From Rhodothermales bacterium (GTDB lineage Bacteria > Bacteroidota > Rhodothermia > Rhodothermales > Bin80), in contig CBDBMQ010000024.1 of the NCBI GenBank assembly GCA_965207565.1, positions 125,860 to 189,859 on the forward strand: DNA of 64,000 nt. Reading direction: 5' to 3'. The notes beneath the pieces were generated by a model. The model did no database searches, was not told where the DNA came from, and saw nothing but the letters and a program-made list of their open reading frames with translations. Of the stretch, positions 8,101 through 51,628 are shown one piece after another. A program made the position numbers and the translations under genes. How positions within the stretch are numbered: the first letter of the stretch is position 1; every line of letters begins with the position of its first letter.

Positions 8101-8656
8101 CAACCGAGGTAGCACCTCCAGATTGAGGAAGGTTTGCCCCTGTGGTATAATCTGTGAAATGCCCCGTGCCGTCATTCACGTACAACTGCACTCCACTTCC
8201 AAGTGAAGTCACAAAGAGATCCAGGTCCCCATCTGCATCAACATCAGAGAACGCTGTGCCAGTTGCTCTTGGATGAACAAGGCCTAAACCCGCCTGAAGT
8301 GTGATGTCCTGGAATTTCCAAGCCCCCAGATTGCGATGGAGTGTACTATGATGCTCCATCCCTGCCAAAAAAATATCAGGCAGGCTATCCCCATCCACAT
8401 CGCCAATGGCGACCCCCGATCCATTGACAACGTGCCGGTTGTCTACAAGAGCCGAAATGCTGATATGATTACTGAACGCAATTGCGTCGGGGATTTCTGT
8501 AAACCCTGTCCCCGTGCCAATGGGGGGACTCAGTGGACGCACCCGATACCCTTCGAACGAAGTCCAAGTACGCTCGGGCTCGGAGCTGCATCCCACAAAA
8601 AGAAACACACCGAGCAAAAATACACGCCAGACCATGCATGCGGAGCACCTGGGCAT
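5033..8656 (-). CDS. Secreted VCBS/FG-GAP repeat protein with ASPIC/UnbV C-terminal domain (CRTAC1 family)
   Basis: N-terminal signal with lipobox-like LFVGCSS. Many DxDxDGxxD(L/I) FG-GAP/VCBS repeats. C-terminus reads GANVRAQYRDG...GSGYWSQNS...VHVSWPGG. Confidence 0.85.
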   Translation of the reverse strand: MPRCSACMVWRVFLLGVFLFVGCSSEPERTWTSFEGYRVRPLSPPIGTGTGFTEIPDAIAFSNHISISALVDNRHVVNGSGVAIGDVDGDSLPDIFLAGMEHHSTLHRNLGAWKFQDITLQAGLGLVHPRATGTAFSDVDADGDLDLFVTSLGSGVQLYVNDGTGHFTDYTTGANLPQSGGATSVALADMDADGDLDLYVGFYKEATVKDVWPPEEITFERVVEPVADSFAVREYWAKDYKLIHQEGRLMRVELAEPDRIFFNDGAGNFTEGSFTEGLFLDENGVSLSEAPQYWTLSVRSQDFNQDGYPDLYVCNDFESPDALWFGSADGIFRAASTLALRKTSQSTMSVAAADINADEHVDLFLADMLSSGYSERQRQHFVIPPEVLTMGDIHARPQEMQNMLLLNRADTTYAEIARWSGVAATGWTWSSVFTDVDLDGWPDLLLTTGHAYDAMDADAQIAARSSRRLWREVLLDFPDLDLPNIAFRNLGNAQFERVEQGWGLGVNPDVAHGMALADLDEDGDQDLVINRLDGPVGVFRNDAEAERILVRLQGLPPNPTGVGALVRVVSDSLPPQNQEVIAGGEYLSSSDAARTFAYSSGAVIEVHWPDGGLSRVDEVIPNSEYWINQPPPQPKVSSELPPTLFKALSTGLQHEETSYADFARQPLLPHRLSQRGPALVAVDIDSDGDEDLILGGGKGKRLQLLVNDAGIFATKQYLGNPSTGDHAGIVALPGVVWAAVGNYERTPEEAGDLSRILQVSLSGEGTPYMLGSESPGPLALGDFTGDGSLELFVGGHFIPGQYPQVTTSTIYRIRDQELLRDDELSAPFENLGLVSGAVAADLNGDQQTDLALAMMWGPVQVFHNRGGGQLVRMTRSLGLTDYVGWWNGITPADFDGDGRLDLVVTNWGQNVPYDQNTPLRAYYGDLDQNSSMDLLEVQWTPDLDALGLVRDFQTLTHALPILRQHVRTYREFSERSAEDIFGSVLSGAADHEVTHWQTTVFMNRESHYEVVPLAVEAQWSPAFAPVAGDFNGDGRIDLFLSQNFFAVASGYPRLDSGRGLLLLANESHELVPQFAQHSGIRIYGSQRASVAADFNLDGRLDLAVTQNAGPVVHFENQSAGVGLRVELRTEHANTFTIGANVRAQYRDGSLGPAAAVVAGSGYWSQNSLAPLLAPRSEIEKVHVSWPGGTDTTVVVQPGAQTVRIVQQ

Positions 8657-8668
8657 CCAGAGCAGGTG

Positions 8669-9157
8669 CTACATTACCCCTGCCTTGAACTCATTCTCAA
8701 GGTATTTGGCAATCTCATCCAGGTAAGCCTCTCGCTCGGCCGTGATCATTACCGGCTCCCAGTTCCCGCCCATTGAGAGTCGGGCCTCAAACTCGGCTTC
8801 CATACGTGAGGAAAACGTGCTCGCGTTCCCTGCTGCACGATTGCGCGGACGCGCATTGACAAAGATGCGTACCCTGGCCGCCACATACCCGGCAGCCTGT
8901 TCATCCGCGAAGGTGACTACATCTTTCCATGATGTTTCCAGGCGTACATCCTCGGGGGTGTCAACTTCTCGATTCATGCGGTATCCGTATCTGGTAAGCA
9001 GGGCATCCTGGGCAGTTGAGACAATATGCCACCGTGCGGAAGTTCCGAGATTGTAACGAAACGTGCTGTCACGAGCCCGCTCACCGTCGGCACCCGGTCC
9101 AGAACAGGCGCCCACAAGCAAGACACAGCATAAAATCCAGTAGATTGATGGTTTCAT
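8669..9157 (-). CDS. Small lipoprotein, function unknown
   Basis: MKPSIYWILCCVLLVGACSGPG signal/lipobox from the internal ATG at 9157. Same strand as the Sus pair. Confidence 0.55.
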   Translation of the reverse strand: MKPSIYWILCCVLLVGACSGPGADGERARDSTFRYNLGTSARWHIVSTAQDALLTRYGYRMNREVDTPEDVRLETSWKDVVTFADEQAAGYVAARVRIFVNARPRNRAAGNASTFSSRMEAEFEARLSMGGNWEPVMITAEREAYLDEIAKYLENEFKAGVM

Positions 9158-9258
9158 TGAGATTCTTCGTATAGTGGTGATTAACCAAAAGCATGGAAGG
9201 GGGGCAGTTCCCATGTGAGTACTGCCCCCCCCCTTCGTTTCATTGAACCGAATGTTTG

Positions 9259-10893
9259 TTAGCGCGGTAAGCTAGCGTCGGTATCAAACCGATAAGCGAC
9301 CGGTGCCCCTCCCGTTCCTCCAACGCCACCAAACGTATAATTCTGCAACCCCAGCGTTTCCAACTCACTGCCGGGCACGGGGAAATGGACTGGCGTTCCT
9401 GTAACGAGATCACCTAATCCGCGATCATCGAAATAGGCCAACCCTCCTGCCGTATTCATCGTCTCAATCCGACGTTCATGCTTAAGCTTGGCCCAAAGGC
9501 TTGCGGAGTCCAAGTGACTCTGTGCGTCTGCCGGAGAGCCCACAGGGTCCGATCCAGAGGCTGGATTCAGCATTCCGCGCGCCACACGCGTCAGATTGAT
9601 CAATTCAGCAACCTCTTCTGTGCTGCCGCCAGTACGCAACAACCCTTCGACTTTATACAAGTCCATTTCTGTGGGGATGATGTGTGGCATGGCGCCAGTC
9701 GAACTATTGTCATAGTAATAAAAATATCGTGTGTGAGTATGGGATGAAAAATGGTAGGTGCCACGAGCGGGTGGAAAAGGACCATCATATCCAAAAAAAG
9801 TAAAATCTGTACCGCTTGCCGTAGGATCATTGGCACTCCCAACAATCCTACGATCTGATGTCATGATCTCAAACACTGAGCGATTTTGCACTGGCGTTGA
9901 CAGCCATTTCTGATAACCTCCCGACTCATCAGCCGGGCCGATCGTGCGATAATCTGCCCGAGCCCAAGAGGTTCCCTCTTGAGCAAAATTCTTCAGGCAG
10001 TCACTCCTAATGTACGGATCTTTATTTCCGATGGGTGCGAAAACTGTGGTAATTCCATTATCAACGAGACCCATGACAGTACTCCAGTTCACCGCTGCAC
10101 GCTCGGCTTCATTCCTTGCAACCTGAACCGTAAAACGTGCAATGAACGAATTGATCAGTCTGACCATGTCTTGAGAACTTACATTCAGTCCCCAGATCCA
10201 ACCGTCAATCGAAAACGAGTTTGCACTCGCGATTGCACGTGCTTCCTCCAACATCCGAATCGCCTCCTGATTCACCTCCATGTAAGGACGTAGTTCAAGT
10301 ACATCATTCTCCAGATCTACCGTCTCGTCAAACACAAACGCTTGGTCAAAGACCAGAGAAAGCGTCCCATGCATCAGACCCTGATTCATTTTTGCAAATG
10401 CTTTCAGGCGTGCTGTATCATGGCCATCACGGGTATATATATTGTTGTCCACACTCTCTTCTTCTTCCGCCCGAATAATTGCCTGAAGCGCATCGGCCGC
10501 ATTTGAGAGACCTGTGTAGCTTAAAAACCAAGGGCCCTCCGTGGCGCCTGAACTGCTGTAGGTTGAGCTGTTATCCCAAGCAATACGGGGCTCACTGGAC
10601 ATATCCCTCATACCAAAGTTGCCCCAGGAAGACGAGTTCTCATCTGCCATGGTTGAAAAGGTCAGGGCAGAACCAGCGCACGACTGGGTCGCACTCCAAT
10701 AACTTGGAAACGTACCTCGCACCAAGTTCACGACATCACCGGGTTGCGCGAAGGCGACCTTCCTGTCCGGTGAGTTTTCGTTTTCCACGGCCAGATCCTG
10801 GCAACCCGTGGCGCTGAGCGTCAGGACACCGATCAGCATGTAGAATGCAAATTGCTTCATTTGATTGATATTCTTAAATTTCATATGGGTCAC
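9259..10893 (-). CDS. SusD/RagB-family nutrient-binding outer-membrane lipoprotein
   Basis: Signal plus Cys (LTLSATGCQDL). Size and position are right, immediately downstream of a SusC-type gene. The start may be an internal Met (10884 or 10860). Confidence 0.85.
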   Translation of the reverse strand: MTHMKFKNINQMKQFAFYMLIGVLTLSATGCQDLAVENENSPDRKVAFAQPGDVVNLVRGTFPSYWSATQSCAGSALTFSTMADENSSSWGNFGMRDMSSEPRIAWDNSSTYSSSGATEGPWFLSYTGLSNAADALQAIIRAEEEESVDNNIYTRDGHDTARLKAFAKMNQGLMHGTLSLVFDQAFVFDETVDLENDVLELRPYMEVNQEAIRMLEEARAIASANSFSIDGWIWGLNVSSQDMVRLINSFIARFTVQVARNEAERAAVNWSTVMGLVDNGITTVFAPIGNKDPYIRSDCLKNFAQEGTSWARADYRTIGPADESGGYQKWLSTPVQNRSVFEIMTSDRRIVGSANDPTASGTDFTFFGYDGPFPPARGTYHFSSHTHTRYFYYYDNSSTGAMPHIIPTEMDLYKVEGLLRTGGSTEEVAELINLTRVARGMLNPASGSDPVGSPADAQSHLDSASLWAKLKHERRIETMNTAGGLAYFDDRGLGDLVTGTPVHFPVPGSELETLGLQNYTFGGVGGTGGAPVAYRFDTDASLPR

Positions 10894-38434: not shown

Positions 38435-39286
38435 TTATTCCGGTTTCAATACTCGAAAATTTGGATTCCTTGCTTCCCAATCGTATAGGTCTCGGCTGAG
38501 CTTCGAATTTTTCATGTCGTCACGATGAAATGACAGTCGCAGACCACTCTTAATTTTCTCGGTACTTACATCTATTGCTCTGTTTGTTCCTATCACACCT
38601 CTCAAACCAAATGCCAAGACTTCTACCATGTCTTTTCCATAGCATATCAGCCAATTGTTGTCTAATGATCGGCGAATGGATTCAAGTTCCTTCACAATGT
38701 TTGCTCTGGATAGTTCAGGGCACCAAGAGTGATTGTGATTGAGTACCTCCTGAATAAAGCTATCAATATCAATTTCGAGCAATTCTCTACCTATAAATTT
38801 TTTGTACCTGATCCCTTGCAGTTTGAGATTCAATCTGTTACGATACGAGTAAAGGCGTAGACATCCAATCCAGACAACTGATGTTACAAGTGTTTCCCGA
38901 ATCTCCTTGCCAAATGTGGTGATTTTCTCCACACTTCCCCATTCTGATAGCACACGATCAAGTGCAGAGGAACGAATCAATAATGCCTCTAGATCTACGG
39001 TTTCAAGTACAATAAGGTTATTATTGGATGAGTGATTCCCCTCAATATGATCCAAGTCAGCATCTACGACACCAATGATACCGGGAAAGGATTCGGTTTC
39101 CAGTATTGAAACCACCTCAATAACATGCTCTTTCCCGTTTGCTACTGTAACCCTACAGTCGTTGTAATTCACAAACTGCTCGAAGAATAGCCGATCATCC
39201 CGTCCCTCAACGACCACAAAACATCCCTCGTGAGATTGACGCTTCAATCGAATCTCGTTAGCTTTAACGATCGGTGTGCGACACAT
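38435..39286 (-). CDS. ariB: DUF4435/TOPRIM-like protein, AriB-like (PARIS-like locus 1)
   Basis: CFVVVEGRDDRLFF (TOPRIM Glu about aa 27) and GVVDADLDHIEG. 283 aa, 9 nt downstream of the ATPase. Confidence 0.7.
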   Translation of the reverse strand: MCRTPIVKANEIRLKRQSHEGCFVVVEGRDDRLFFEQFVNYNDCRVTVANGKEHVIEVVSILETESFPGIIGVVDADLDHIEGNHSSNNNLIVLETVDLEALLIRSSALDRVLSEWGSVEKITTFGKEIRETLVTSVVWIGCLRLYSYRNRLNLKLQGIRYKKFIGRELLEIDIDSFIQEVLNHNHSWCPELSRANIVKELESIRRSLDNNWLICYGKDMVEVLAFGLRGVIGTNRAIDVSTEKIKSGLRLSFHRDDMKNSKLSRDLYDWEARNPNFRVLKPE

Positions 39287-39295
39287 TAGCTCAAC

Positions 39296-40618
39296 TCAAT
39301 CAAGCAACTCAACGACAAGGGGCCATTTGCCTCCAATAATCTCGGGGGAATGCGTGGCTACAATTGCTCGGAAGTTGGAGAGTTGTGCTGTCTTTGCAAG
39401 ATCTTCTAGCCATTGTTCTTGCCAGTCAACATGCAACGAAAGTTCTGGCTCATCAATGAGAATAAGAGAGTTGCTGGAAGCACGAAACAACAACTCATAA
39501 AATATAACGAGTTCGTGTTGTTCCCCTGAGGAGAGCATTTCTAAGTCTAGGTCGGTGTCGCCATTTTTGCTGACACGCAATCCTTTGTCGCTAACCGACA
39601 CCTGTTTATGGCTGAATCGAGAATTAACGATTCTCTTGAAAGCACTTACCTTTCCGTAAAGATCATCAAAGATTGCAAGCTTTTTTTTTGTATCTCGTGC
39701 GTAGACCGCAAGTACATTTTGCTTTGATTCGTCCACATTACTCAGGTCGGGAACCGCAAGTCCACCTTGCTCCCCTACTAGAAGACCTGCCTCCTCTAGC
39801 TGCAAGCGCTTTTGTTCAATTTCATCAAGGTCTCTACGTAACGTTTCAACCAAATCACTGGAAAGTTCGGGGTCGGTGACCAAGCGATAAGGAAAGGTAC
39901 GGTCAAGCGACTCAGACAGTTCCCCGTACTGGGCCATTGACTGCCGTATTCGATCAGCTAGCTGCCGGGAATAGTGACTCACAGTACGTGTAGTGCTCGC
40001 GGCATGGCGATACCTCCGGCGACGATGAGAAATGCGGATGAGGCGTTCAGTATCAATGAATCGTACATTTATAGGGCGTATTATATTTTGAAGCCATTCG
40101 GGGGGCGAAATTGACTCGCGTAGACGCTGAGGTAGGAGCTTGCTAGGATAAGTCGTGATTACATCATGCAGATCCAGTTCCTCCCCCGTTTCTGAATTAA
40201 TCCATTGTTGGCGGCCTACTTGATCAAGTGTCGGTATGACGTCTTCGATAGTAGATATCGGAATTCTAAGATCTGCTCGGCCAATCAAAGCTCCGCGTAG
40301 GTGAAAGGGCTTGTCCGCGCCATCGTGATGGAAAGTTAAAGTCGGCGACAACTGTTCTTGATCATCATGGTGGTCGTCCAAGAGTCTTCGCACAACTAAC
40401 TGCGTATCGTCATCAAAAGAAACACTAAATTCTCGAAACGGCACTTCAAAAAGTCGGCTGATTGGTTGATTAAACATCACGTCAAGGAGCTTCAAAATTG
40501 TGGTCTTACCAGAGCCGTTTGGACCAGTGACGATCATGATGCGTTCGTTGGCAACAAACTTAAGGTCATAATTGAAGGCGTCAAACAGATCCTTAACACA
40601 GATACGATCGATGTTCAT
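39296..40618 (-). CDS. ariA: ABC-type (AAA_15/21-like) ATPase, AriA-like (PARIS-like locus 1)
   Basis: Walker A GPNGSGKTT, LSSGEQ signature, LILIDEPELSLH Walker B and ATHSP. AGGAG lies 9 nt upstream of the ATG. Confidence 0.75.
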   Translation of the reverse strand: MNIDRICVKDLFDAFNYDLKFVANERIMIVTGPNGSGKTTILKLLDVMFNQPISRLFEVPFREFSVSFDDDTQLVVRRLLDDHHDDQEQLSPTLTFHHDGADKPFHLRGALIGRADLRIPISTIEDVIPTLDQVGRQQWINSETGEELDLHDVITTYPSKLLPQRLRESISPPEWLQNIIRPINVRFIDTERLIRISHRRRRYRHAASTTRTVSHYSRQLADRIRQSMAQYGELSESLDRTFPYRLVTDPELSSDLVETLRRDLDEIEQKRLQLEEAGLLVGEQGGLAVPDLSNVDESKQNVLAVYARDTKKKLAIFDDLYGKVSAFKRIVNSRFSHKQVSVSDKGLRVSKNGDTDLDLEMLSSGEQHELVIFYELLFRASSNSLILIDEPELSLHVDWQEQWLEDLAKTAQLSNFRAIVATHSPEIIGGKWPLVVELLD

Positions 40619-40989
40619 GATAAACTTCTCCTATCATAATGCCTAATGCGATGAGACAGACTGAGGAATCGGAGAATCACATCCTCTAGCCTGAATTCCC
40701 AAACCGGAGTAGATCATGACACTGCGAGTCCACGAAGTTATCATATTCGGGGTTTTTTTCACTATTTCTTGACTTATCGTCATTTATTATGTGATTGTAA
40801 TTTATATAATCACTTTTCCTCTACGTACTTCCCTCTGGCCCCTCTCTTCCTCTAAACAGTGATTTGTTTGGGAATTCCGTCCATCTATCCTGTTCTAACC
40901 CCCATTCTGTCCCGTATTTCCGTTCCATTTGCATTTGGTGAAAAATGTTTGTAGTTTAGTGATCATAATCATCATTAGGATGTTATAAT

Positions 40990-42726
40990 ATGACTGACCT
41001 CGCCAACCACTTCCTCAAACCCAAAAACAAAACACACAGACGCTACGAAGTCCTGCGCGCCGCCTTCGTTGAACGACTGCCACTGAGAACCATCGCCGAA
41101 CGCTTCGGATATTCCTACGGGACAGTCCGTAATCTCTGCTCCGAGTTCCAGAAACAGCCCGATCTGGACTTCTTTCTGCCTCACCTACGCCGGGGAGCGC
41201 CACCTCGTACCGAGACGCCGCCTTCCCAGGATATACGCCTTCAGCGCAACCAACGTATCCGAGAACTGCGCAAAGAGAGGAACCTCTCGGTCCGGGAGAT
41301 CTGTGCGATTCTCCACCGGGAAGGCCTGGGGGCCAGTATGTCCACCGTTGGGCGCGTCTTGCGCGAGGCGGGCTTTACAAAACTACGTCGGCGTACCGCG
41401 ATTGCGCAATTGGATTCGGTGAACATCCACCGTGCGGCCACAGCGGATGTTCGGAATCTGGACCTGAAGCCCCATCGTTTTCGGACGGACTTCGGAGGAC
41501 TCTTTCTCTTTATGCACGATCTGGCCCGCATGGATCTGGACGGGTTACTCCAGAGTTGTGCCATGCCCGGCAGTATCATGATTCCTGCTGGCTGTGCGGT
41601 ACGGGCGCTGTTGGCCCTCAAGCTCTGGGGAGTGCGGCGGACCTCGCGAGGGATGGTGGATATTCTGGATCCGGGACTGGCCCTCTTTGCCGGCCTGAAT
41701 GCCATGCCCAAGCGCAGTACGCTCACCGAGTATTCCTGTCGAGTCCATCCCGCGCAGATCCGCCGTCTCATCAACGCCTGGCACCCGGCCGTGCGGGCAC
41801 TCGACGAGTCGTTGGGGGGCAATGGGACCTCCTTTGACCTGGACTTCCATACCATCCCCTACCATGGAGAGGATGCCCTGATTGAAAAACATTTCGTCTC
41901 CAAGCGTAGTCGCAGTCAGAAAGGGATCCTCTCGCTTGTGGTACGCGATGCCGATGCACAGATTCGCAAAACAAATCGGCACGATTCGCTCCCGCAGTTT
42001 CTCCAATTCTGGCGCGAACAGACCGGTGCCTATCCCCGGGAAGTGGTCTTTAACAGTACCTTTACCACCTACGCGCACTTGCAAAAGCTGACCGACCTCG
42101 GGATTGACTTCCTGACTCTCAGAAGACGGTCCCGCAACATGGTCAAGGCTCTGAATGAGGTGCCGTCAGACCAGTGGCAACGCATCCGGCTCACCAATGT
42201 CGGACGTACGTTCCGTACCCCCCGCATCTTGGAAAAAAAAGTCCGCGTCCGAGGCTACAAGTCTGAATTACGACAGATCGCCATCCTGGACCTCGGATAT
42301 GACAAGCCAACGCTGCTGATCACCAATCAGATGGACGAACATGCCGGCCAATTGATTGACCGATACGCACGGCGCATGATCATCGAAAACACCCTGGCCG
42401 ATGCCATTGACTTCTTTCACATGGATGCGCTTAGCTCTGCTGTCCCCCTCAAAATTGAAATGGATCTCCAGCTCACACTCATGGCCAGTACACTCTACCG
42501 AGTCCTGGCCCAACGGGTCGGGCGGGGTATGGAAACCGCCAAGCCCCGCACACTCTTCGAAAAACTCGTGCGAAATCAAGCCACCATCCAGATCCGATCC
42601 AAAGACATCCTCGTCTCCCTCTCCCGACGCGCCAACAACCCCTACCTCCTGGCTGCAGGGTACAGAGATGCAGAAGTCCAGATCCCTTGGCTGGACAATC
42701 GGAAACTGCGCATCATCATCCCCTAG
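40990..42726 (+). CDS. DDE transposase of the IS4 superfamily (ISNCY-like) with N-terminal HTH
   Basis: HTH-like LRTIAERFGYSYGTVRN, FDLDFHTIPYHG, and Y-x2-R-x3-E in YARRMIIEN. Confidence 0.65.
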   Translation: MTDLANHFLKPKNKTHRRYEVLRAAFVERLPLRTIAERFGYSYGTVRNLCSEFQKQPDLDFFLPHLRRGAPPRTETPPSQDIRLQRNQRIRELRKERNLSVREICAILHREGLGASMSTVGRVLREAGFTKLRRRTAIAQLDSVNIHRAATADVRNLDLKPHRFRTDFGGLFLFMHDLARMDLDGLLQSCAMPGSIMIPAGCAVRALLALKLWGVRRTSRGMVDILDPGLALFAGLNAMPKRSTLTEYSCRVHPAQIRRLINAWHPAVRALDESLGGNGTSFDLDFHTIPYHGEDALIEKHFVSKRSRSQKGILSLVVRDADAQIRKTNRHDSLPQFLQFWREQTGAYPREVVFNSTFTTYAHLQKLTDLGIDFLTLRRRSRNMVKALNEVPSDQWQRIRLTNVGRTFRTPRILEKKVRVRGYKSELRQIAILDLGYDKPTLLITNQMDEHAGQLIDRYARRMIIENTLADAIDFFHMDALSSAVPLKIEMDLQLTLMASTLYRVLAQRVGRGMETAKPRTLFEKLVRNQATIQIRSKDILVSLSRRANNPYLLAAGYRDAEVQIPWLDNRKLRIIIP

Positions 42727-42997
42727 AATACCCCCCATTGTCATATCTTAATTCCCCCATATGCCGGTTGGGAATTCAAGCTAGAATTAACCAGTCGGCG
42801 AACAAGGGCAGGCGCCAAAGGTTTCAAACGAATATTTTTCAATCTTCCAATCGTTCCCTAATCGTACGCTGTGACGCATCACTGCATCAAGAGCTGATTC
42901 CAACGATACCTCTGTGGTTGGTGGGCCCAAGAATTTAATTCCTCTACACGAATTGCAGTCGAACCCTCCCTCTGCAGTTCACAGACCTCAAAATGTT

Positions 42998-43642: not shown

Positions 43643-44725
43643 ATGCCCACCAAGAGCATCGAAATGATAGAAGTCTCGCGTCTCCGGCTTGATGCGGAAA
43701 ATCCTAGGCTTGGAAGACATTTTATCGGTACGCATCCCAGCCAGAAAAAAGTCCGGGATAAGATGAGTAACTGGACACTTGATGAACTGGCTATCTCGTT
43801 CATTGAAAACGGTTTTTGGCCTCAGGAAGCTCTCGTAGTGCTTGATGACAAGGATACCCCACTGACTGTGTTGGAAGGTAATCGGCGCCTAGCGGCACTA
43901 CAATTACTCCTTGAGGCGAAAGACGGTAAGCCATACACCTCCAAGTGGAACGAGATTGCAAATTCGGCTACACCGGAGAGGATTCAGAAATTACACGCCG
44001 TTCCATGTATAAAAGTGAACGATCGCCGAGACGTTCAGGCATACCTGGGCTTTCGTCATGTGACTGGAATCAAGCAATGGGCTCCTGCGGAGAAGGCATC
44101 CTATATTACACATCTGATTGAAGAAGAGGGGCTTTCCTACGAAGAGGTTATGCGTCGAATTGGCAGCAAAACACCGACCGTGCGCCAACATTACATTGCC
44201 TATCGCTTACTGAGCCAGATAGAGGAGGAGGTCGAAGATATTTCCCTGAAGGATGTAGAAGAACGTTTCAGTGTAATGTATTTGTCTCTTCGCTCTGCCG
44301 GCACGCAGAAGTTTCTCAAGATAGATCTCTCGGCAGAACCCAGTAAGCAGCTTCGCCCGGTATCAACGTCGCGTTCTAGTAATCTGGCAAACTATGCCGC
44401 TTGGCTTTTTGGCACGAAAGAGCAACCTCCATTGTTCCGGGATTCCAGGCAGACAGATAGGTTTGGAAAAATTCTTGGTAGTGAGAAAGCGCTGGCATAC
44501 CTTGAGCGGACCTCAATCCCCATCTTTGAAGTTGCGGAACGTCTGGCCGGGAGCGAAGAAACCGAGGTATTGAGGTATATCGAGCAAGCAACCGATGAAA
44601 TGGAGAAAGCGTTGAGCGTAGCTCACCTATACAAGAATTCTTCCAGAATACGCGAGGCCGTAGATCGGTTCAGGAAAGGAGCAGAAAGATTGATTGAATT
44701 GTTCCCAAATCCACCGGCAGAATAA
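43643..44725 (+). CDS. ParB/Srx N-terminal-domain protein
   Basis: IEVSRLRLDAENPR... and VLEGNRRLAALQLL (ParB-type GxxR box), followed by a helical region. Confidence 0.7.
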   Translation: MPTKSIEMIEVSRLRLDAENPRLGRHFIGTHPSQKKVRDKMSNWTLDELAISFIENGFWPQEALVVLDDKDTPLTVLEGNRRLAALQLLLEAKDGKPYTSKWNEIANSATPERIQKLHAVPCIKVNDRRDVQAYLGFRHVTGIKQWAPAEKASYITHLIEEEGLSYEEVMRRIGSKTPTVRQHYIAYRLLSQIEEEVEDISLKDVEERFSVMYLSLRSAGTQKFLKIDLSAEPSKQLRPVSTSRSSNLANYAAWLFGTKEQPPLFRDSRQTDRFGKILGSEKALAYLERTSIPIFEVAERLAGSEETEVLRYIEQATDEMEKALSVAHLYKNSSRIREAVDRFRKGAERLIELFPNPPAE

Positions 44726-44741
44726 TCAGAGGGTCTGTCTG

Positions 44742-45674
44742 ATGCTCCGCATTCCCTCTAAGGGACTCCAAAATTCCGTGAACAGACACAATTGCCGTAC
44801 GGATGTCTTGTCGGACTGGATTGAAGGTTCTGCCCTTTTCACTCAAACACGCATCTCTAAGGTCGACGTTCTGGACATGCTCCTTGAAGAACAGGTCTAT
44901 AGAAACGAGGACTTTGCCTGGGAGTTTATCCTCAACGTATGGGACGATTTACGGTATCGGGTAGAACATGGAAAAAATTGTGCGCTGCGCATTGATTTAG
45001 ACGGAGTAACCCCAGAAGGGCATTGGGAAAAATTCCCGGCATACTCATTTTGTCTTGCACTGGCTCTCCGGGATTGGTGCTCCTGTGGCGACAATTCCCA
45101 TCATGAGCAGGGTGAGTTGTTTGAGAGACTCACTGAGTGCTCTCTGGTCGCAAGAGGTTGGAGATCAAAGAGAACCGGTTGGGCTTCAAAAAATGCTGCC
45201 GGTCTGCCTAGATTGGTTGAAGAAATTTCGTCACACATTAAGGAGCCACTTGGGGGTAATATTGAAGAATGGCTCCCGTCCAGAGGCAAAGATGCCGGCT
45301 TGGACCTGATATGTGACCAACTATTTTCGGATGATCGTGGAGGCCGCCCGCTTTATTTTTTTCAGTGTGCTTCCGGTCGCCAGTGGAAGGACAAGACAAA
45401 TACTCCAGATCTTCAACTGTGGGCTAAACTCATTGATTTCTCGAACAGTCCGCTCCGCGGGTTTTCCCTCCCTTATGTTCTGTCAGAAAGGAGGGAGTTT
45501 CGGCGCGTGGCCAATAGCATAAACGGTATCCTAATTGACCGACTGAGACTTATTGCCCCTCTTGCCGGAGACAGCAACCAAGTTCCTTCCGAGCTTGAAT
45601 CCGATTTGAAAAATTGGCTAACCCCTCGAATAGAAGCTCTCACGTCTGAATCACATGTCAATCAAATTTATTGA
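44742..45674 (+). CDS. Unknown protein with a possible PD-(D/E)xK-like nuclease core
   Basis: GELFERL...GKDAGLDLICD...YFFQCASGRQWKDK. Its stop overlaps the dcm start by 20 nt. The function call is weak. Confidence 0.5.
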   Translation: MLRIPSKGLQNSVNRHNCRTDVLSDWIEGSALFTQTRISKVDVLDMLLEEQVYRNEDFAWEFILNVWDDLRYRVEHGKNCALRIDLDGVTPEGHWEKFPAYSFCLALALRDWCSCGDNSHHEQGELFERLTECSLVARGWRSKRTGWASKNAAGLPRLVEEISSHIKEPLGGNIEEWLPSRGKDAGLDLICDQLFSDDRGGRPLYFFQCASGRQWKDKTNTPDLQLWAKLIDFSNSPLRGFSLPYVLSERREFRRVANSINGILIDRLRLIAPLAGDSNQVPSELESDLKNWLTPRIEALTSESHVNQIY

Positions 45675-46949
45675 CTTATTTGCAGGACTGGGAGGGTTTC
45701 ACCAAGCCCTCAGACAGCGGGGGTCGGAATGTGTTTTTGCGTCAGAACTCAATCCCCAACTCGCAGACCTTTACAGGCAGAATTTCGGGATTTCACCCCA
45801 GGGAGACATCAGAAAGGTCAATCCTTCATCAATTCCAAATCACGATGTGCTGTGCGCCGGCTTTCCATGTCAACCTTTCTCCAAAGCAGGCAATCAAAAG
45901 GGACTGGAATGCCCGCAATGGGGTGACCTGTTCAGCTATATCGTCAAAATCTTAGAGGTCAAAAAACCTCGCTATTTCATTATTGAGAATGTCCCCAACC
46001 TTGTTCGGCACAATCACGGCAAAACTTGGGATACTATTTGCGATCAGCTTCGCGTGGATTATAATATCAGTTTTGAAAAGCTGTCCCCCCACATGTTCGG
46101 CATTCCGCAGAAGCGGGAACGTACTTTCATCGTAGGCGACCGACGAGGCTTGATAGGATTCAGGTGGCCTCTTCCAGATAAATTGCCTGAGCTATCGATC
46201 CGTACGGTTCTTGATGACAACCCCAAAGATGCCCTTGTTCTAAACGAAGACCACCTCAACTATCTTAGAACCTGGCAGGAGTTTATTTCGTCTTTCCCTG
46301 TAGATGAAGACCTCCCCTCTTTTCCGATTTGGGCAATGGAATTTGGTGCGGACTATCCAGTAGATGGGCCGACCCCACATAAAATGGGCTACACCCAGTT
46401 GGGGGAATTCAGGGGATCTTTTGGGCAGCCACTCAAGAACTTGCCTCCTGAGAATGTCGCAAAAGCTCTTCCCGTGTATGCCCGGACAAAGCAGGATACT
46501 TTTCCCCAGTGGAAGATTAGCTTCATCCAAAAGAATCGTGCTTTCTATTCCCGCTACCAAGAATTGATTGATGGCTGGCTTAACAAGGTTCAGGGGTTTC
46601 CCCCCCAGCTTCCAGAAACTTGAGTGGAACTGCAAGGGTGGTGAGCGGGACATCTGGAAGTATCTACTTCAGTTCCGAGCGAGCGGCATTCGCGTGAGAA
46701 GAACCGAAACTGCCCCGTCCCTTATTGCTATGACCACCAGCCAAGTGCCAATAATAGCATGGCAGAAACGTTACATGACCCCCCCGGGAATGTAGCCGCT
46801 TGCAAAGCATGGGGTCGTTGGGGAATCTCCCTGATTCAAAGGGTGGAGCGTACAGGGCCTTTGGTAATGCTGTAAATGTTGAGGTCGTTTTGAATATTTT
46901 CGATGCCCTGGTCAAACGACCAAGCTTCAGTGGCAGAGACTCCAATTAA
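45655..46949 (+). pseudogene. dcm: DNA (cytosine-5) methyltransferase with two +1 frameshifts
   Basis: Motif I DLFAGLGG, motif IV GFPCQPFS, motif [14 protein letters not shown] is in frame 2. RECSRLQS and GNAVNV are in frame 3. Removing one C from each C7 tract (46600-46606 and 46779-46785) gives one 430-aa ORF. Confidence 0.85.
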
Positions 46950-47205: not shown

Positions 47206-48211
47206 TTAACGCATCCGGCTCCTCCCTTGGGTTACACTCGCGTGCATAACGGAAAATCGTCTCGCTGGCCAGTCGTGGCGTATTTTCAGCTTCGGCCAAT
47301 AACGCTGCGTTAGGGCCTCCACCTGCTCCCATGTTGTCCGATCCTTCTGGGACCGCCGACGTAGGACACAGAGCCAGGCCCATTTCAGGCACCTAAAACA
47401 TCTTCGTAGGTACGGGTAGCTCCATGGTACGGCGTAGTAGTTCAGCCAGCCATTCAGAACTTGCCCAAGCCATATGCCCGTGTCATGCACGCTTTGGTGC
47501 ATCCAGTGCCACAGCTCCTTACGAATTCGTTTTATGAAACGCGCCATACGCTTCGCGATTGGTTTACGGCCCAATCCGAATTTTCCTTTGCGGGTCTTAC
47601 GGCAGTAATGCGTAAATCCCAGAAAGTCAAAGGTCTTGGGCTTACCTTCTCCTCGGTTTCTACGGCGTTCGATCGCATCTCGACCGAATTCAATCAGTCG
47701 CGTTTTGTCGGGATGCAGACTCAATCCGAATTTCTCCAGTCGGGTCCGCAAGGCCAGTAGAAATTTCTCCGCCTCCTCCTTGTACTTTCCACAAAATCGT
47801 CCGCGTAACGAACGATATACGACTCCCCTACGATCTTGCGTGATTTGCGCTGGGACTTGAACCATAAGTCCAGCACGTAATGAAGATAGATGTTCGCCAG
47901 GATCGGCGAGATTACCGCGCCTTGCGGCGTACCCCGCTTACTCTCCCGCCAGTTTCCATTCTCCATTACCCCCGCTTTCAGGAATTTTGTGATGAGACGA
48001 AGTACCCGTTTGTCCGCGATCCGGTGTTCCAGGAAGCGGATTAACCACTCCTGTTCAACCATATCAAAGAACTTTCGGATGTCCGCATCAACCACATAGT
48101 TGACCCGTCGGCGTTCGATCACATATGCTAAGGCATCCAGACCGTTGTGGGCACTTCGGCCCGGCCTGAATCCATAGCTGAACCCGCAGAACTCCATCTC
48201 GTAGATGGGCT
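47206..48211 (-). pseudogene. Intron A reverse transcriptase, central and C-terminal parts (frameshift just after YADDF near 47795)
   Basis: EPIYEMEFCGFSYGFRPGRSAH, TPQGAVISPILANIYLH, RYADDFV, then in another frame KYKEEAEKFL...LHPDKTRLIEF...GWLNYY. Confidence 0.75.
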
Positions 48212-48857
48212 AGCGCGGTAGGGGCCCGGATTACTCCGGGCCCCCCGCACAGATCCGGACGTGCGCGTTAACGCATCCGGCTCCTCCCTTGGGTCGCACC
48301 ATCGTGCATAACGGCATGATTGCCGTAGCCGATTGATCCCATAGACTCACTGATCCATCTCTGTGTATGGCGTGAGTTCGGATCTCCCAGCTTCCCCTTG
48401 GGTGGGGACCTTCGCTCCAGCGACTCCGCAGGTCTCCCCTTGTTCGCCGCCTTCATCGCTACTATGTCCCCATCTGACTGCTCTATCCCGTGCATCACAG
48501 GCTTCAGCGTCTTCCGCCTTCCCTGCATGGTTCCAACTCTGCGTTTAGGACAGGATAGAGCCCTCCCAGGTCCCGACAAAATGCGTGCGTACGTCCGTGA
48601 GTTCTTAGACACCGTGGGCCTGTATGCCGCCTCACCATGGTAGTGACATACATGTTGCCTTCGACCTCTTGGACGACCTCGGCGACCCAAATAATAACAA
48701 TTTCGATGCTCAATAGCTCCGGCCATACGTACCTCTACCGACGCTTCGTCGTGATCCTCGCGGAGCACAACGCACGGCTCAAGGAAGTATGTGATTGGTT
48801 GCATCTTCATACTACGGGACTTTCACCCGCTACATTTTGCCAGTTAGCCTGGCGCAC
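48212..48857 (-). mobile_element. ORF-deleted group II intron B (646 nt) inserted inside the RT gene of intron A
   Basis: Starts GTGCGCCAGGCTAACTGGC (48857). Domain V at 48252-48283. Ends CCCTACCGCGCT (48212). Removing exactly these 646 nt restores ...VKYIL-E-PIYEMEF. Confidence 0.75.
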
Positions 48858-49347
48858 CCAAGATATATTTCACCATCGCATGCTGGACAATCTTGTCTTC
48901 CAGTGCTGCGATCCCGAGCGGTCGTGTGCCCCCATCAGGCTTCGGGATATTCACCCGCCTGCTGGGGGTCGCTCGAAACGATCCACGGTGTACGCGTGTA
49001 CAGAGATCCGCAAGGTTGCGGTCCAAGTTCTCGCTGTACGCCGCCCACGTCACTTGATCCACTCCCGGTGACGCATCTCGCTTTAGTGCGAAAAACGCCG
49101 CCCTCAGTGAGTCCTCATTGATGTGGTGCAAGAGCGTTGTAAGTTTCTCCTCTGGGTTCCGTCGTACGAATTCCCGTATCCGTTCCTTCCCTTGGTGCAC
49201 ACTTGCCCATTTCTGTGCATGGTGTGTGGTAGGATCTTGCGGATTCCCCTCGGGTAGAGGCCTTCGCTCCGACCGTTCCGCGGATGGTTCCTTGTTCACG
49301 GTCTTCCTCACTACTATGCCTCTATCTGACTTCTCCATCTCGTGCAT
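48858..49347 (-). pseudogene. Intron A reverse transcriptase, N-terminal part
   Basis: LLHHINEDSLRAAFFALKRDASPGVDQVTW...IPKPDGGTRPLGIAALEDKIVQHA. Confidence 0.75.
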
Positions 49348-49709
49348 CTTAGGCTTCGGCGTCTTCCGCCTTCTCTAAACGGCCCCGTACGACGGCAGGG
49401 CAAGATGGAGACCTCCCAGGTCCCAGCAAAGTGCGTACGTGCGTCCCTGAGTTCTCGGACACCGTGGGCCCATAGGTCCTCTCACCATAGCGATGACCTA
49501 CATGTTGCCTTCGACCATTTCCACGGCCTCGGCGACCCAGATGATGACCATTTCGATGCTCAATAGCTCCGGCCACACGCTCCGCTACCGACACTTCATC
49601 GGGACCCTCGCGGATCACTACGCACGGCTCGCGGAAATATGTGTTTCGGTTAAACTTCATATTACGGGACTTGCACCCGCTACACTTTGCCAGTTAGCCT
49701 GGCGTTCAC

Positions 49710-50347
49710 ATATCCATATTCACATTCTCAATTTGTTCCAACTGCGCTGGGATAAATCCCGCATACCAAGCCTGTAGACTCGATTTTGTCCGACCTTCAC
49801 GCACATTCAGAACCCTCCTCATTTTGGGATCCGATACAATGATCACATAATCATGCCGCTTACGAAAAGAGGTCTCATCCACGCAGATGTGGGTGGGAGA
49901 CAACTCCGCTCTTCGCGCAAGCCCCCGGTGTACCGCACGTTGCATGATCCCGTCAATGGTGTTCCATCTCACACCCATCAAACGGGCAACGGCGGAAACA
50001 CTCGTCTCCTTCAGCCAGTCAATCACCAATGCCTCATAGGCAAACGTTACCCCCGCATTCGTCGAGGCCCAGGGAACCGATACGGTCCGAACTCCATGAT
50101 CTGAACACTGCACACGCGCAACCTCTGCTACCACGAACGTACGATACTTCCGCGCGCGCCACCGACGAGGACGACGATCATACACGGAACAAACCTGATC
50201 ACACTTCGAACATCACAGCGTAGACGTGTCCATGCAAATAACATGAATCTCCACTTCTTTGGCCGCACGGTTCGTCGTCATCCGGGAAACCTCCCAGGGA
50301 GACTCGATGCCATATACCTGACTGATCTCTTTGATCTCGATCTTCAT
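49710..50347 (-). pseudogene. Second ISL3-family transposase. Only the N-terminal part remains; it is frameshifted and cut by intron A.
   Basis: MKIEIKEISQVYGIESPWEV...(frameshift)...VQCSDHGVRTVSVPWA...CVDETSFRKRHDYVIIV...NVNMDM. The intron then begins where the intact copy reads MDMWPAYI. Confidence 0.7.
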
Positions 50348-50610: not shown

Positions 50611-50661
50611 ATGTACTGCTACAGTAAGGTGATCTAATCTTTGACGCTTGGGAGGAATGTT

Positions 50662-51132
50662 ATGGATACACAAACTAGTGTGTTTGATGTAGCTGCATAT
50701 ATCTTAAAAAAATCAGGTCCCATGACGACATGGAAGCTTCAAAAGCTGGTATACTATTGCCAAGCATGGTCGCTTGTGTGGGATGGCGACCAGATGTTTG
50801 ATGACGAAATTGAAGCATGGGCCAACGGCCCGGTATGCAGAAAACTGTATGAGAAGCACAAGGGGCAATTCCGTATCGGTAAACTACCAATAGGGGATGC
50901 CAGTGTGTTGATGGAGAACCAGAGGGAAACTGTAGATGCAGTTTTACGAGATTATGGAAATAGATCACCAAAATGGTTAAGTGATCTAACCCACATGGAA
51001 GACCCATGGAAAAAGGCAAGAAGAGGTATCCCAAGGAGTGAAAGAGGTGAATCCGTTATCTCTAAAGAGTCTATGGCTGAATATTATGAGAGCCTACACG
51101 AAGAAGATGGTGCTTGGCTAAGTGAGTCCTAA
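50662..51132 (+). CDS. Panacea/DUF4065 (SocA/GepA-like) domain protein, putative antitoxin
   Basis: FDVAAYILKKSGPMTTWKLQKLVYYCQAWSLVW...EAWANGPVCRKLYEKHKG. GGGAGGA upstream. Confidence 0.8.
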   Translation: MDTQTSVFDVAAYILKKSGPMTTWKLQKLVYYCQAWSLVWDGDQMFDDEIEAWANGPVCRKLYEKHKGQFRIGKLPIGDASVLMENQRETVDAVLRDYGNRSPKWLSDLTHMEDPWKKARRGIPRSERGESVISKESMAEYYESLHEEDGAWLSES

Positions 51133-51628
51133 AAAGAGGGGACGTGCAGGACGACATAAGCAAGGAACAAAAAGATCGCTTGCCCAAAATGTACCTTCAG
51201 GAGATAAGCGGACCCATCGAGAAGGACAAAATAGTTTCCAACAAAAACCCGTCTGGTCTTTTGAGGTGTTAGATATAGAAGGACCATGGGGTTGGAATAA
51301 CGACAAGGTGACATCCATATTATGGACTGAAATAGTGCCCAAACTGCAAAGTTTTGAAACCATGACTTGGGGCGAAATAACTCAACAGGCAGGAGGACGC
51401 AAACATGGCAACAACCACCACTTCATAAGCGTTGAGGCTTTGACGCGTAAAGTACAAAAAAGACTGTCGGCGATCAGACAAGATGATATAGATGAGATTT
51501 TTTCTTTTAGGCTCAAAGCGAAAACACGCATTTATGGCCTTACAGAAGGTCAAGTGTTTAAATTACTTTGGTATGATCCCTTTCATGGCAACAACAGGGA
51601 GGCCGTAGTATCAGTGACGCAAAAATAA
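51122..51628 (+). CDS. Unknown 168-aa protein overlapping the Panacea gene end, candidate toxin partner
   Basis: GTG start overlaps the upstream stop by 11 nt. Very basic N-terminus. Conserved-looking ...FSFRLKAKTRIYGLTEGQVFKLLWYDPFH. Confidence 0.5.
   Translation: MSPKKRGRAGRHKQGTKRSLAQNVPSGDKRTHREGQNSFQQKPVWSFEVLDIEGPWGWNNDKVTSILWTEIVPKLQSFETMTWGEITQQAGGRKHGNNHHFISVEALTRKVQKRLSAIRQDDIDEIFSFRLKAKTRIYGLTEGQVFKLLWYDPFHGNNREAVVSVTQK

Follow-up and report, generated by a model that had tools for sequence, protein, structure and literature searches.

A conserved cassette of a ParB-fold protein, a putative restriction-fold nuclease, and a C5-cytosine methyltransferase in a Rhodothermales bacterium and across bacterial phyla

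We analyzed a stretch of 64,000 nucleotides from contig CBDBMQ010000024.1 of a Rhodothermales bacterium (hereafter, the window; coordinates refer to this stretch unless another sequence is named). At positions 43643-46949, the window carries three genes in the same direction on the + strand, which we call A, B, and M. Gene A (43643..44725) encodes a ParB/Noc/KorB-fold protein of 360 amino acids. Gene B (44742..45674) encodes a putative nuclease effector of 310 amino acids from an uncatalogued family. Gene M (45655..46949) encodes a C5-cytosine DNA methyltransferase, which is spread over three reading frames here and is 430 amino acids long when repaired. A first-pass annotation of this DNA had described three co-directional open reading frames (ORFs), with a start codon for B at 44742, a 20-nt overlap between B and M, and a 17-nt gap between A and B. 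The ORFs, the start codon, and the overlap (45655-45674) stand, and the gap is 16 nt.

The start of B at ATG 44742 is backed by all 57 of the homologues that we aligned, each of which begins with ML.xP. A longer ORF for B, which would initiate with TTG at 44694, was rejected because the homologues begin at the equivalent of 44742. A scan of the cassette for promoters and terminators did no better than chance.

Protein A was characterized from its ORF, from PADLOC models, and from an AlphaFold model compared to known structures with Foldseek. It is predicted to have an N-terminal domain with a nucleoside triphosphatase (NTPase) fold, which contains the motif LxLDxxNPRLGR and a P-motif (G79-N-R81-R82); a central helix-turn-helix (HTH) domain at about residues 148-196; and a helical C-terminal domain at about residues 240-352. 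A had been described as a ParB/Srx-type protein with the sequence VLEGNRRLAAL (residues 76-86) and a helical tail, and structural comparison bears this out. The AlphaFold model, which was built on 49 homologues, has a predicted local distance difference test (pLDDT) score of 87.9. Its best matches in the PDB are ParB bound to cytidine triphosphate or diphosphate (CTP or CDP), KorB, and Noc (225-283 columns, E = 2e-5 to 1e-3, Foldseek probability 1.0), and the matching region spans both the NTPase-fold domain and the HTH domain.

Comparisons to family models were less direct. Pfam gave nothing for A at E <= 0.01, and ParBc (PF02195) was not matched; HTH_ParB was matched below threshold by 24 of the 49 members of the A family. 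Among PADLOC's models, those for PD-Lambda-5_A match the first ~150 amino acids of A (residues 1-154; best E = 3e-18), which covers positions ~4-158 of the 466 in the profile, or its N-terminal third. PDC-M38A matches residues 46-334 (E = 7e-17), and the literature that we searched had no mention of the name "PDC-M38."

In the alignment of 49 A sequences, three stretches are invariant: the LxLDxxNPRLG motif, the GxxR P-motif (G79/R81/R82), and the block GFRHV(T/S)GI. The last of these appears to stand in the place of Box III, whose residues (canonically ENxxR) ParB needs for hydrolysis. In a survey of the ParB-CTPase fold, the arginine of GxxR was required for nucleoside triphosphate (NTP) binding in the ParB-fold proteins that were tested, and its mutation abolished binding; Box III is frequently divergent in orphan or non-canonical ParB-like proteins (PMC12704722). 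From its N-terminal fold and its GxxR motif, A is predicted to be a member of the ParB/Srx (ParB-CTPase fold) superfamily.

For protein B, searches by sequence came back empty, whether against Pfam, NCBIfam, PADLOC, or the PDB (by phmmer and by profile search). A relaxed Pfam scan (E <= 1) of 58 members of the B family gave no consistent match, and neither Mrr_cat nor Mrr_N appeared. No homology of B to HEPN domains was detected in any library. The family is not small: a word-indexed search yielded 77 clusters at 90% identity, and an exhaustive profile search yielded 2,933 representatives at 50% identity, of which 410 reach E <= 1e-30. A pattern-limited scan of viral contigs found B in at least one contig.

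The invariant residues of the B family include E128 (in QGxLFE), D188 (in KDxGLD), C209 (in QCASG), K218, and R269. Q208 is nearly invariant. In B itself, E128, D188, Q208, and C209 lie within GELFE, DAGLDLI, and FFQCASG. The resulting signature, E128...D188...Q208-C-A...K218, is atypical.

The AlphaFold model of B is of high quality (pLDDT 91.8; predicted template-modeling score, pTM, 0.91). In the model, the N-terminal domain (residues ~20-113) has the order helix-helix-helix-hairpin and is winged-helix-like, and the C-terminal domain has the order alpha-beta-beta-beta-alpha-beta, as in enzymes with the restriction-endonuclease fold. E128 is on the first helix of this domain, D188 at the start of a strand, Q208 and C209 where the next strand ends, and K218 on the helix that follows. 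In Foldseek searches of the PDB, the first match is MspJI (E = 1.6e-4, probability 1.0), followed by VC1899, Card1, Can2, EcoT38I, NucS/EndoMS, AF1548, and Mus81. Among viral models, the best matches with a functional annotation are described as "restriction endonuclease" or "Mrr domain-containing." The C-terminal domain of B is thus predicted to have an Mrr/MspJI-like PD-(D/E)xK fold.

It had been suggested, from the sequence motifs, that B resembles PD-(D/E)xK enzymes. The predicted structure of the 310-residue protein agrees with this, as do the motifs, except that the canonical lysine is absent. Two positions after Q208 there is an alanine, and the only invariant lysine nearby is K218, ten residues downstream. 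With the canonical lysine replaced by alanine, the active site of B would be atypical, if B is active.

The third gene had been recognized as a canonical Dcm, and it is one. M matches PF00145 (E = 3e-59, in its N-terminal half) and TIGR00675, and the closest relative of its catalytic half is M.HhaI (E = 2e-49). In the window, M is open in one frame from 45655 to 46623, after which two more frames carry it to its stop at 46949. Both frame changes (+1) fall exactly at runs of seven Cs on the + strand (46600..46606 and 46779..46785). When seven further assemblies of this locus are aligned to the window, both runs are six Cs long in them. If each run is shortened by one C, M becomes a protein of 430 amino acids with 84% identity over its full length to the orthologue from the closest related locus (L005).

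The seven other assemblies came from a look-up of the exact sequence of A, which returned nine contigs, from which seven distinct loci (L088-L094) are considered here. These are independent short-read metagenome assemblies, and their sample names suggest sponge microbiomes. All seven encode an identical A, a B of 310 amino acids, and an intact M of 430 amino acids, and they are 99.3-99.9% identical to the window. Across A, B, and M, they differ from the window by one substitution in B (E75K, at an alignment column that varies), by two in M, and by the single C inserted at each of the two runs. The window is therefore a distinct strain or assembly.

Could the frameshifts reflect a general problem with homopolymers in this assembly? 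We rejected this explanation. The window has five runs of at least seven Cs (at 6053, 9225, 11661, 46600, and 46779) and no such runs of G. Two of the five are the frameshift sites in M; the other C9 and C7 runs are inside intact ORFs of 1,207 and 1,142 amino acids or are intergenic. Also, the ~8.6 kb that the window shares with the short-read contigs has no further insertion or deletion, despite T9 and T7 runs and three more C6 runs. Given that two of five C6 runs changed, the probability that both would be inside M by chance is 0.3. The two single-C expansions are either assembly errors or strain-specific decay.

The first-pass annotation had remarked on an intact nuclease beside a frameshifted methyltransferase. 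This is true of the window, but since M is intact in the seven other assemblies, the combination of a dead methylase and a live nuclease is confined to this strain or assembly and is not a feature of the cassette. (We also observed the opposite pattern of decay: in two related genomes, B is broken into two ORFs and its neighbors A and M are intact, at 4941-5861 in L006/L008 and at 3032-3977 in L043.)

The same genes occur together in many other genomes. With the alignment of A as the query, a search across 185,579 species, each represented by one genome, found 185 relatives. The counts of loci given here are for the best 80 of these 185, with profile searches over every ORF of these loci; counts out of 81 include the window. 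The 80 loci are from Planctomycetota, Acidobacteriota, Bacteroidota (including Rhodothermales), Poribacteria, Chloroflexota, Verrucomicrobiota, and Proteobacteria. Isolates among them include Pseudomonas sp. B22129, Ectopseudomonas composti, Luteimonas terricola, Sphingomonas, and a Neorhizobium with the genes on a conjugative plasmid.

We have several pieces of evidence that the genes are linked. First, B is directly downstream of A in 76 of the 80 genomes, which span more than 10 phyla, and in all 76 loci that have B, A is immediately upstream. The most common junction between A and B is a stop/start overlap of 1 nt, at 40 of the 76 junctions that we scored (75 from the 80 genome loci plus the window). 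The two genes are translationally coupled at most of the loci. Looking up the genomic context of individual relatives of A and of B gave results that agree with the scan of loci.

Second, 65 of the 80 loci (81%) encode a C5-cytosine methyltransferase no more than 7 kb from A-B. One conserved subfamily (E < 1e-100) is present in 57 of the 81 loci, in four arrangements: A-B-M (29 loci), M-A-B (11), A-B followed by a convergent M (11), and a divergent M followed by A-B (6). That M is found in four arrangements argues for a functional linkage and not an accident of operon structure. The target-recognition part of M is conserved as strongly as its catalytic motifs, and the sequences suggest that this subfamily shares one specificity.

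Third, the three proteins diverge together. Among the 52 complete trios, the pairwise identities of A and B are correlated (Spearman rho = 0.59), as are, to a lesser extent, those of A and M (0.27) and of B and M (0.22; Mantel test, p <= 0.008). Median identities across the trios are 55% for A, 39% for B, and 53% for M. The three families, whose co-occurrence the first-pass annotation had set as a check, are thus found together in genomes, and the arrangement of A, B, and M is far beyond chance: it is a conserved, horizontally mobile module in many bacterial phyla.

A more distant version of the cassette is carried by P2-like phages. With tblastn, we found homologues of A in the genomes of Wphi, a Peduovirus P2 record, vB_EcoM-12474II-V, Yersinia phages L-413C and HQ103, and Pseudomonas phage vB_PaeM-D14A. 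The phage homologues share 26-32% identity with A, in alignments that cover 63-88% of its length. In the annotated records, they are named "ParB N-terminal domain-containing protein" and have the portal gene Q on one side and the replication gene A on the other; each is followed by a hypothetical protein and then by a convergent cytosine methylase. This interval of P2 is a known hotspot for defense genes (PMC9519451).

Two of these phages have a distant homologue of the full cassette: gp98-gp96-mth in Wphi (L096; NC_005056.1, 29419-32589) and gp04-gp05-gp06 in vB_EcoM-12474III (L095). The hypothetical proteins gp05 and gp96 are remote homologues of B (hhalign probability 96-97%; E = 4e-9 and 4.5e-10), whose alignments to B match up the motifs DGGLD, QC(G/A), W..K, and DR.RL. 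The phage cassettes are like A-B-M in their three-gene architecture; they differ in that the sequences are highly divergent and the phage methylase is shorter (312 amino acids) and from another subfamily. In RefSeq, the homologue of A bears the ParB name and the homologue of B is a "hypothetical protein"; the GenBank entry for Wphi (AY135739) has only gp98. Of 5,426 complete E. coli genomes, 104-140 have the Wphi cassette, E. coli W among them. We found no functional study of the phage cassette in the literature we searched.

In a few loci, A has other partners. Two loci from metagenome-assembled genomes of Poribacteria (L070, at 6959-10231 of its sequence, and L078) encode an orthologue of A, then an N6-methyltransferase of the Dam class (D12), and then a protein of 393 amino acids. 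This A is 49% identical to ours and has a near-identical HTH. The 393-residue protein contains the motif GDLEI...YEMKMK (D...E-M-K), has no match in NCBIfam or Pfam, and is unrelated to B (hhalign probability 0.1%). At another locus (L010), A is followed by a fragment of an Eco57I-type methyltransferase. The two Poribacteria loci look like a swap of both effector and methylase on a constant ParB-like module. Given the near-identical HTH of A in these variant cassettes, A would be the constant module, with an effector and a methylase that are exchangeable.

How does the cassette compare to known systems? The closest named relative is PD-lambda-5, which Vassallo et al. (2022) listed as "ParB/HEPN, methyltransferase"; it is a compact prophage system that combines restriction-modification (R-M) and abortive infection (Abi), with broad anti-phage activity (PMC9519451). 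Both systems place a ParB-fold protein beside a DNA methyltransferase, and both are found on mobile elements, including prophages. However, PD-lambda-5 has two genes, one of which encodes the ParB domain and a HEPN effector (of the RNase type) as a single fused protein. In contrast, A has an HTH followed by a helical tail, and the putative effector is a separate protein with a predicted PD-(D/E)xK fold and no PADLOC model. Similarly, operons that encode ParB, HEPN (the MAE_28990 family), and a DNA methylase were noted computationally by Anantharaman et al. in 2013 (PMC3710099). These operons, too, are R-M-like and combine a ParB-fold protein with an effector and a DNA methylase, but the effector is a HEPN RNase domain instead of a restriction-endonuclease fold.

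Compared to the CTPases ParB/Spo0J, Noc, and KorB, A shares the core of an NTPase fold and an HTH, the GxxR P-motif, and an N-terminal motif containing NPR. Unlike these proteins, A has an apparently diverged Box III and an unrelated C-terminal domain, and its context is a defense island rather than segregation. Nor does A resemble the ParB of a partition system (ParABS) in its surroundings: no ParA is encoded beside A in the loci whose called genes we listed (L001-L007 and L088-L094), and no parS-like site or other shared repeat is conserved in the 250 nt upstream of A at 79 loci.

Relative to Mrr and MspJI, B has a similar predicted catalytic fold, with a DNA-binding-type domain preceding the nuclease domain, and its spacing D-x19-Q resembles the D...QxK of Mrr. 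The differences are that the lysine of QxK is replaced in B (Q-C-A, with the invariant lysine ten residues later) and that B is nearly always accompanied by a ParB-fold partner and usually by a methylase, whereas Mrr and MspJI are stand-alone, modification-dependent enzymes. As in classical Type II R-M systems, a restriction-fold gene is linked to a methylase (65 of 80 loci). Unlike in those systems, which need no NTP-binding accessory protein, a ParB-fold gene accompanies B in all 76 of the scanned loci that have B, and M is broken in the window, though intact in L088-L094 and in its orthologues. The earlier view that this is a non-standard, R-M-like cassette is supported by the predicted fold of B, by the co-occurrence of the genes across phyla, and by the coupling of A and B. 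Our literature search found no named system or paper with the composition of ParB, a restriction fold, and Dcm. Overall, the cassette belongs to a barely explored theme of ParB-fold protein, effector, and methylase (as in PD-lambda-5), with an uncatalogued family as the effector.

The surroundings of the cassette in the window also include defense genes. Immediately upstream, on the - strand, PADLOC identifies an apparently intact PARIS-type pair (38435-40618): AriB/DUF4435, of 283 amino acids (AriB model, E = 1.5e-23), and AriA, an ABC-type ATPase of 440 amino acids (AriA model, E = 3.6e-27). Because of this adjoining pair, we consider the cassette to be in a defense island. Between the PARIS pair and A is an insertion sequence of 2,091 bp (40690-42780) with a DDE_Tnp_1 transposase of 578 amino acids (ORF 40990-42726). 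This insertion is absent from the seven other assemblies of the locus, and the alignments that flank it overlap by 4 bp, which is consistent with a target-site duplication.

Downstream of M, on the - strand, is debris from mobile elements (47206-50185). It comprises fragments of a group II intron reverse transcriptase in different frames (RVT_1 at 47721-48197) and a fragment of an ISL3 transposase (49706-50185). Relative to the contig of L088, the intron debris has a 7-nt deletion near 47786, and beyond ~47300 the window diverges from that contig, as if it had a different copy of the intron. Further along, on the + strand (50641-51628), a SocA/Panacea-domain, antitoxin-like gene of 163 amino acids (PF13274, E = 5e-18) overlaps an ORF of 168 amino acids that has no family match. 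These two are possibly a toxin-antitoxin pair.

Other loci carry Z1, DUF262, HEPN_AbiU2, or Eco57I-type genes near the cassette. In particular, on a conjugative plasmid of Neorhizobium sp. EC2-8 (L097; NZ_CP147997.1, 69448-78664), A-B is downstream of a split dcm, a DUF262 gene, a Z1-domain gene, and a gene annotated as "PD-(D/E)XK motif protein." In this region, R-M and Type IV-like genes are densely clustered.

On balance, we favor the view that the three genes are the components of a single R-M-like defense module, which is horizontally mobile and lies within a defense island. In this module, M, as a C5-cytosine methyltransferase, would mark host DNA as self. B would be the effector that cleaves DNA, with a winged-helix-like N-terminal domain and an Mrr/MspJI-type PD-(D/E)xK domain. 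A, which is made together with B, would be an NTP-gated DNA-binding partner that loads on or scans the DNA and licenses or delivers the nuclease. A nucleotide switch would then be coupled to cleavage, analogous to the NTP-dependent Type I, Type III, and McrBC enzymes. The candidate reader of the methylation site would be the winged-helix-like domain of B. This view draws on the folds of the proteins, the conservation of their motifs, the coupling of A to B, the linkage and co-evolution with M, and the homology to the phage cassettes; from these we infer the nuclease activity, the partner that reads methylation, the dependence on NTP, a complex of A and B, and an anti-phage function.

Several observations weigh against this view. 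Box III of A appears to be replaced by the invariant FRHV(T/S)GI, so NTP hydrolysis may differ or be absent. The predicted likeness of A to ParB is at the level of the fold only, below Pfam's threshold. In B, the canonical lysine of (D/E)xK is missing (Q-C-A), with K218 as a putative substitute. Also, the HTH of A is essentially the same whatever the type of methylase, so A cannot be what reads the methylation site.

Another difficulty is that about 8 of the 80 loci (~10%) have an intact A-B with ample flanking sequence and no methylase within 7 kb. These solitary loci include L030 (from Luteimonas terricola BZ92r), L025, L018, L021, L036, L074, and L083, and their flanks contain housekeeping or mobile-element genes (a methylmalonyl-CoA mutase fusion, sigma-70, an amidase, and an integrase). 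For these loci, the cognate methylase is either unlinked or absent. Both the solitary A-B loci and the apparently intact A-B beside a frameshifted M would be awkward for a restriction enzyme that is constitutively active. In view of both, A-B may act only when triggered, or M may be provided in trans.

More specifically, A might be an NTP-gated clamp of the ParB type that loads on incoming DNA, slides along it, and delivers or licenses B where the cognate C5-methyl mark is missing. We put this forward tentatively. If true, it would be a new class of NTP-dependent restriction that is neither helicase-driven (as in Type I, Type III, and ISP enzymes) nor GTPase-driven (as in McrBC). The effector would be interchangeable: PD-(D/E)xK here, HEPN in PD-lambda-5, and another restriction endonuclease, with Dam, in Poribacteria.

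The main rival explanation is that B and M are a two-component, Type II-like R-M pair and that A is an NTP-dependent controller of their transcription, akin to DndB or KorB (a CTP-dependent clamp that functions as a repressor) and so a large ParB-fold analogue of the C proteins, outside the cleavage machinery. C genes usually lie ahead of R genes and overlap them. A combines N-terminal domain and HTH as in a full ParB architecture, its best structural matches include KorB, and its HTH is invariant across methylase partners, as expected if it bound a fixed operator. There is a precedent in DndB, an ATP-dependent, ParB-like repressor of an R-M-like system, the dnd operon (PMC12704722). But we found no sign of an operator. 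In the 250 nt upstream of A from 79 loci, shared 8-12-mers were not above shuffled controls, and neither were inverted repeats (arms of 5-6 nt, spacers of 0-8 nt). This empty search weakens the case for a controller, as does the retention of A with B at loci without a linked methylase. Furthermore, PD-lambda-5 fuses its ParB domain to the effector, which suggests a role in the effector machinery and not in transcription. We consider a controller unlikely.

A third explanation, and a rather improbable one, is that A-B is a Type IV-like, modification-dependent nuclease (as are Mrr, MspJI, and GmrSD) that attacks methylated or hypermodified foreign DNA. The nearby methylase would serve some other purpose, or would make a pattern that A-B ignores. 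The first-pass annotation had raised a modification-dependent system as one option. The best structural match of B is MspJI, and its viral matches are of the Mrr type; Mrr consists of a winged-helix N-terminal domain and a catalytic C-terminal domain, which the predicted layout of B mirrors. Type IV enzymes such as GmrSD and SspE contain ParB-like DUF262 domains, and 6 of the 49 members of the A family weakly match GmrSD_N. The solitary A-B loci, and the intact A-B beside a broken M in the window, also fit with this idea. However, a modification-dependent nuclease is less likely because the methylase is usually linked to A-B: 81% of loci have a linked C5-cytosine methyltransferase, which takes up any of four arrangements with A-B and co-evolves with it. 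This is a hallmark of systems that are protected by modification, not of those that depend on it. And where B is replaced, as in L070, the methylase is replaced as well.

Finally, we give almost no credence to an incidental juxtaposition of a plasmid-partition leftover, a decayed Dcm, and an unrelated hypothetical ORF: mobile-element debris is abundant around the cassette (the insertion sequence at 40690-42780, the intron fragments, and the ISL3 fragment) and M is frameshifted in the window, yet A and B are adjacent (76 of 80 genomes) and translationally coupled across phyla, listed loci have no ParA beside A, and the same trio occurs in P2-like phages. In particular, the suggestion that A is a partition remnant is refuted by its adjacency to B and by the linkage to C5-cytosine methyltransferases across genomes.

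ParB-fold CTPases are known mainly as clamps in the segregation of chromosomes and plasmids, and their other roles are only now being surveyed. This cassette couples a ParB-type core (the predicted NTPase fold and HTH) with a restriction-fold protein and a methyltransferase in at least 185 species-level genomes as well as in P2-like coliphages. The B family is outside of Pfam, NCBIfam, and PADLOC, so current finders of defense systems miss the system entirely. E. coli W and ~2% of complete E. coli genomes naturally carry a homologue, so the proposed function is directly testable. If the cassette is a working immune system, it would explain the role of the ParB domain in PD-lambda-5, which has been validated as a defense system but is mechanistically opaque, and it would add a way of distinguishing self from non-self that is based on an NTP switch.

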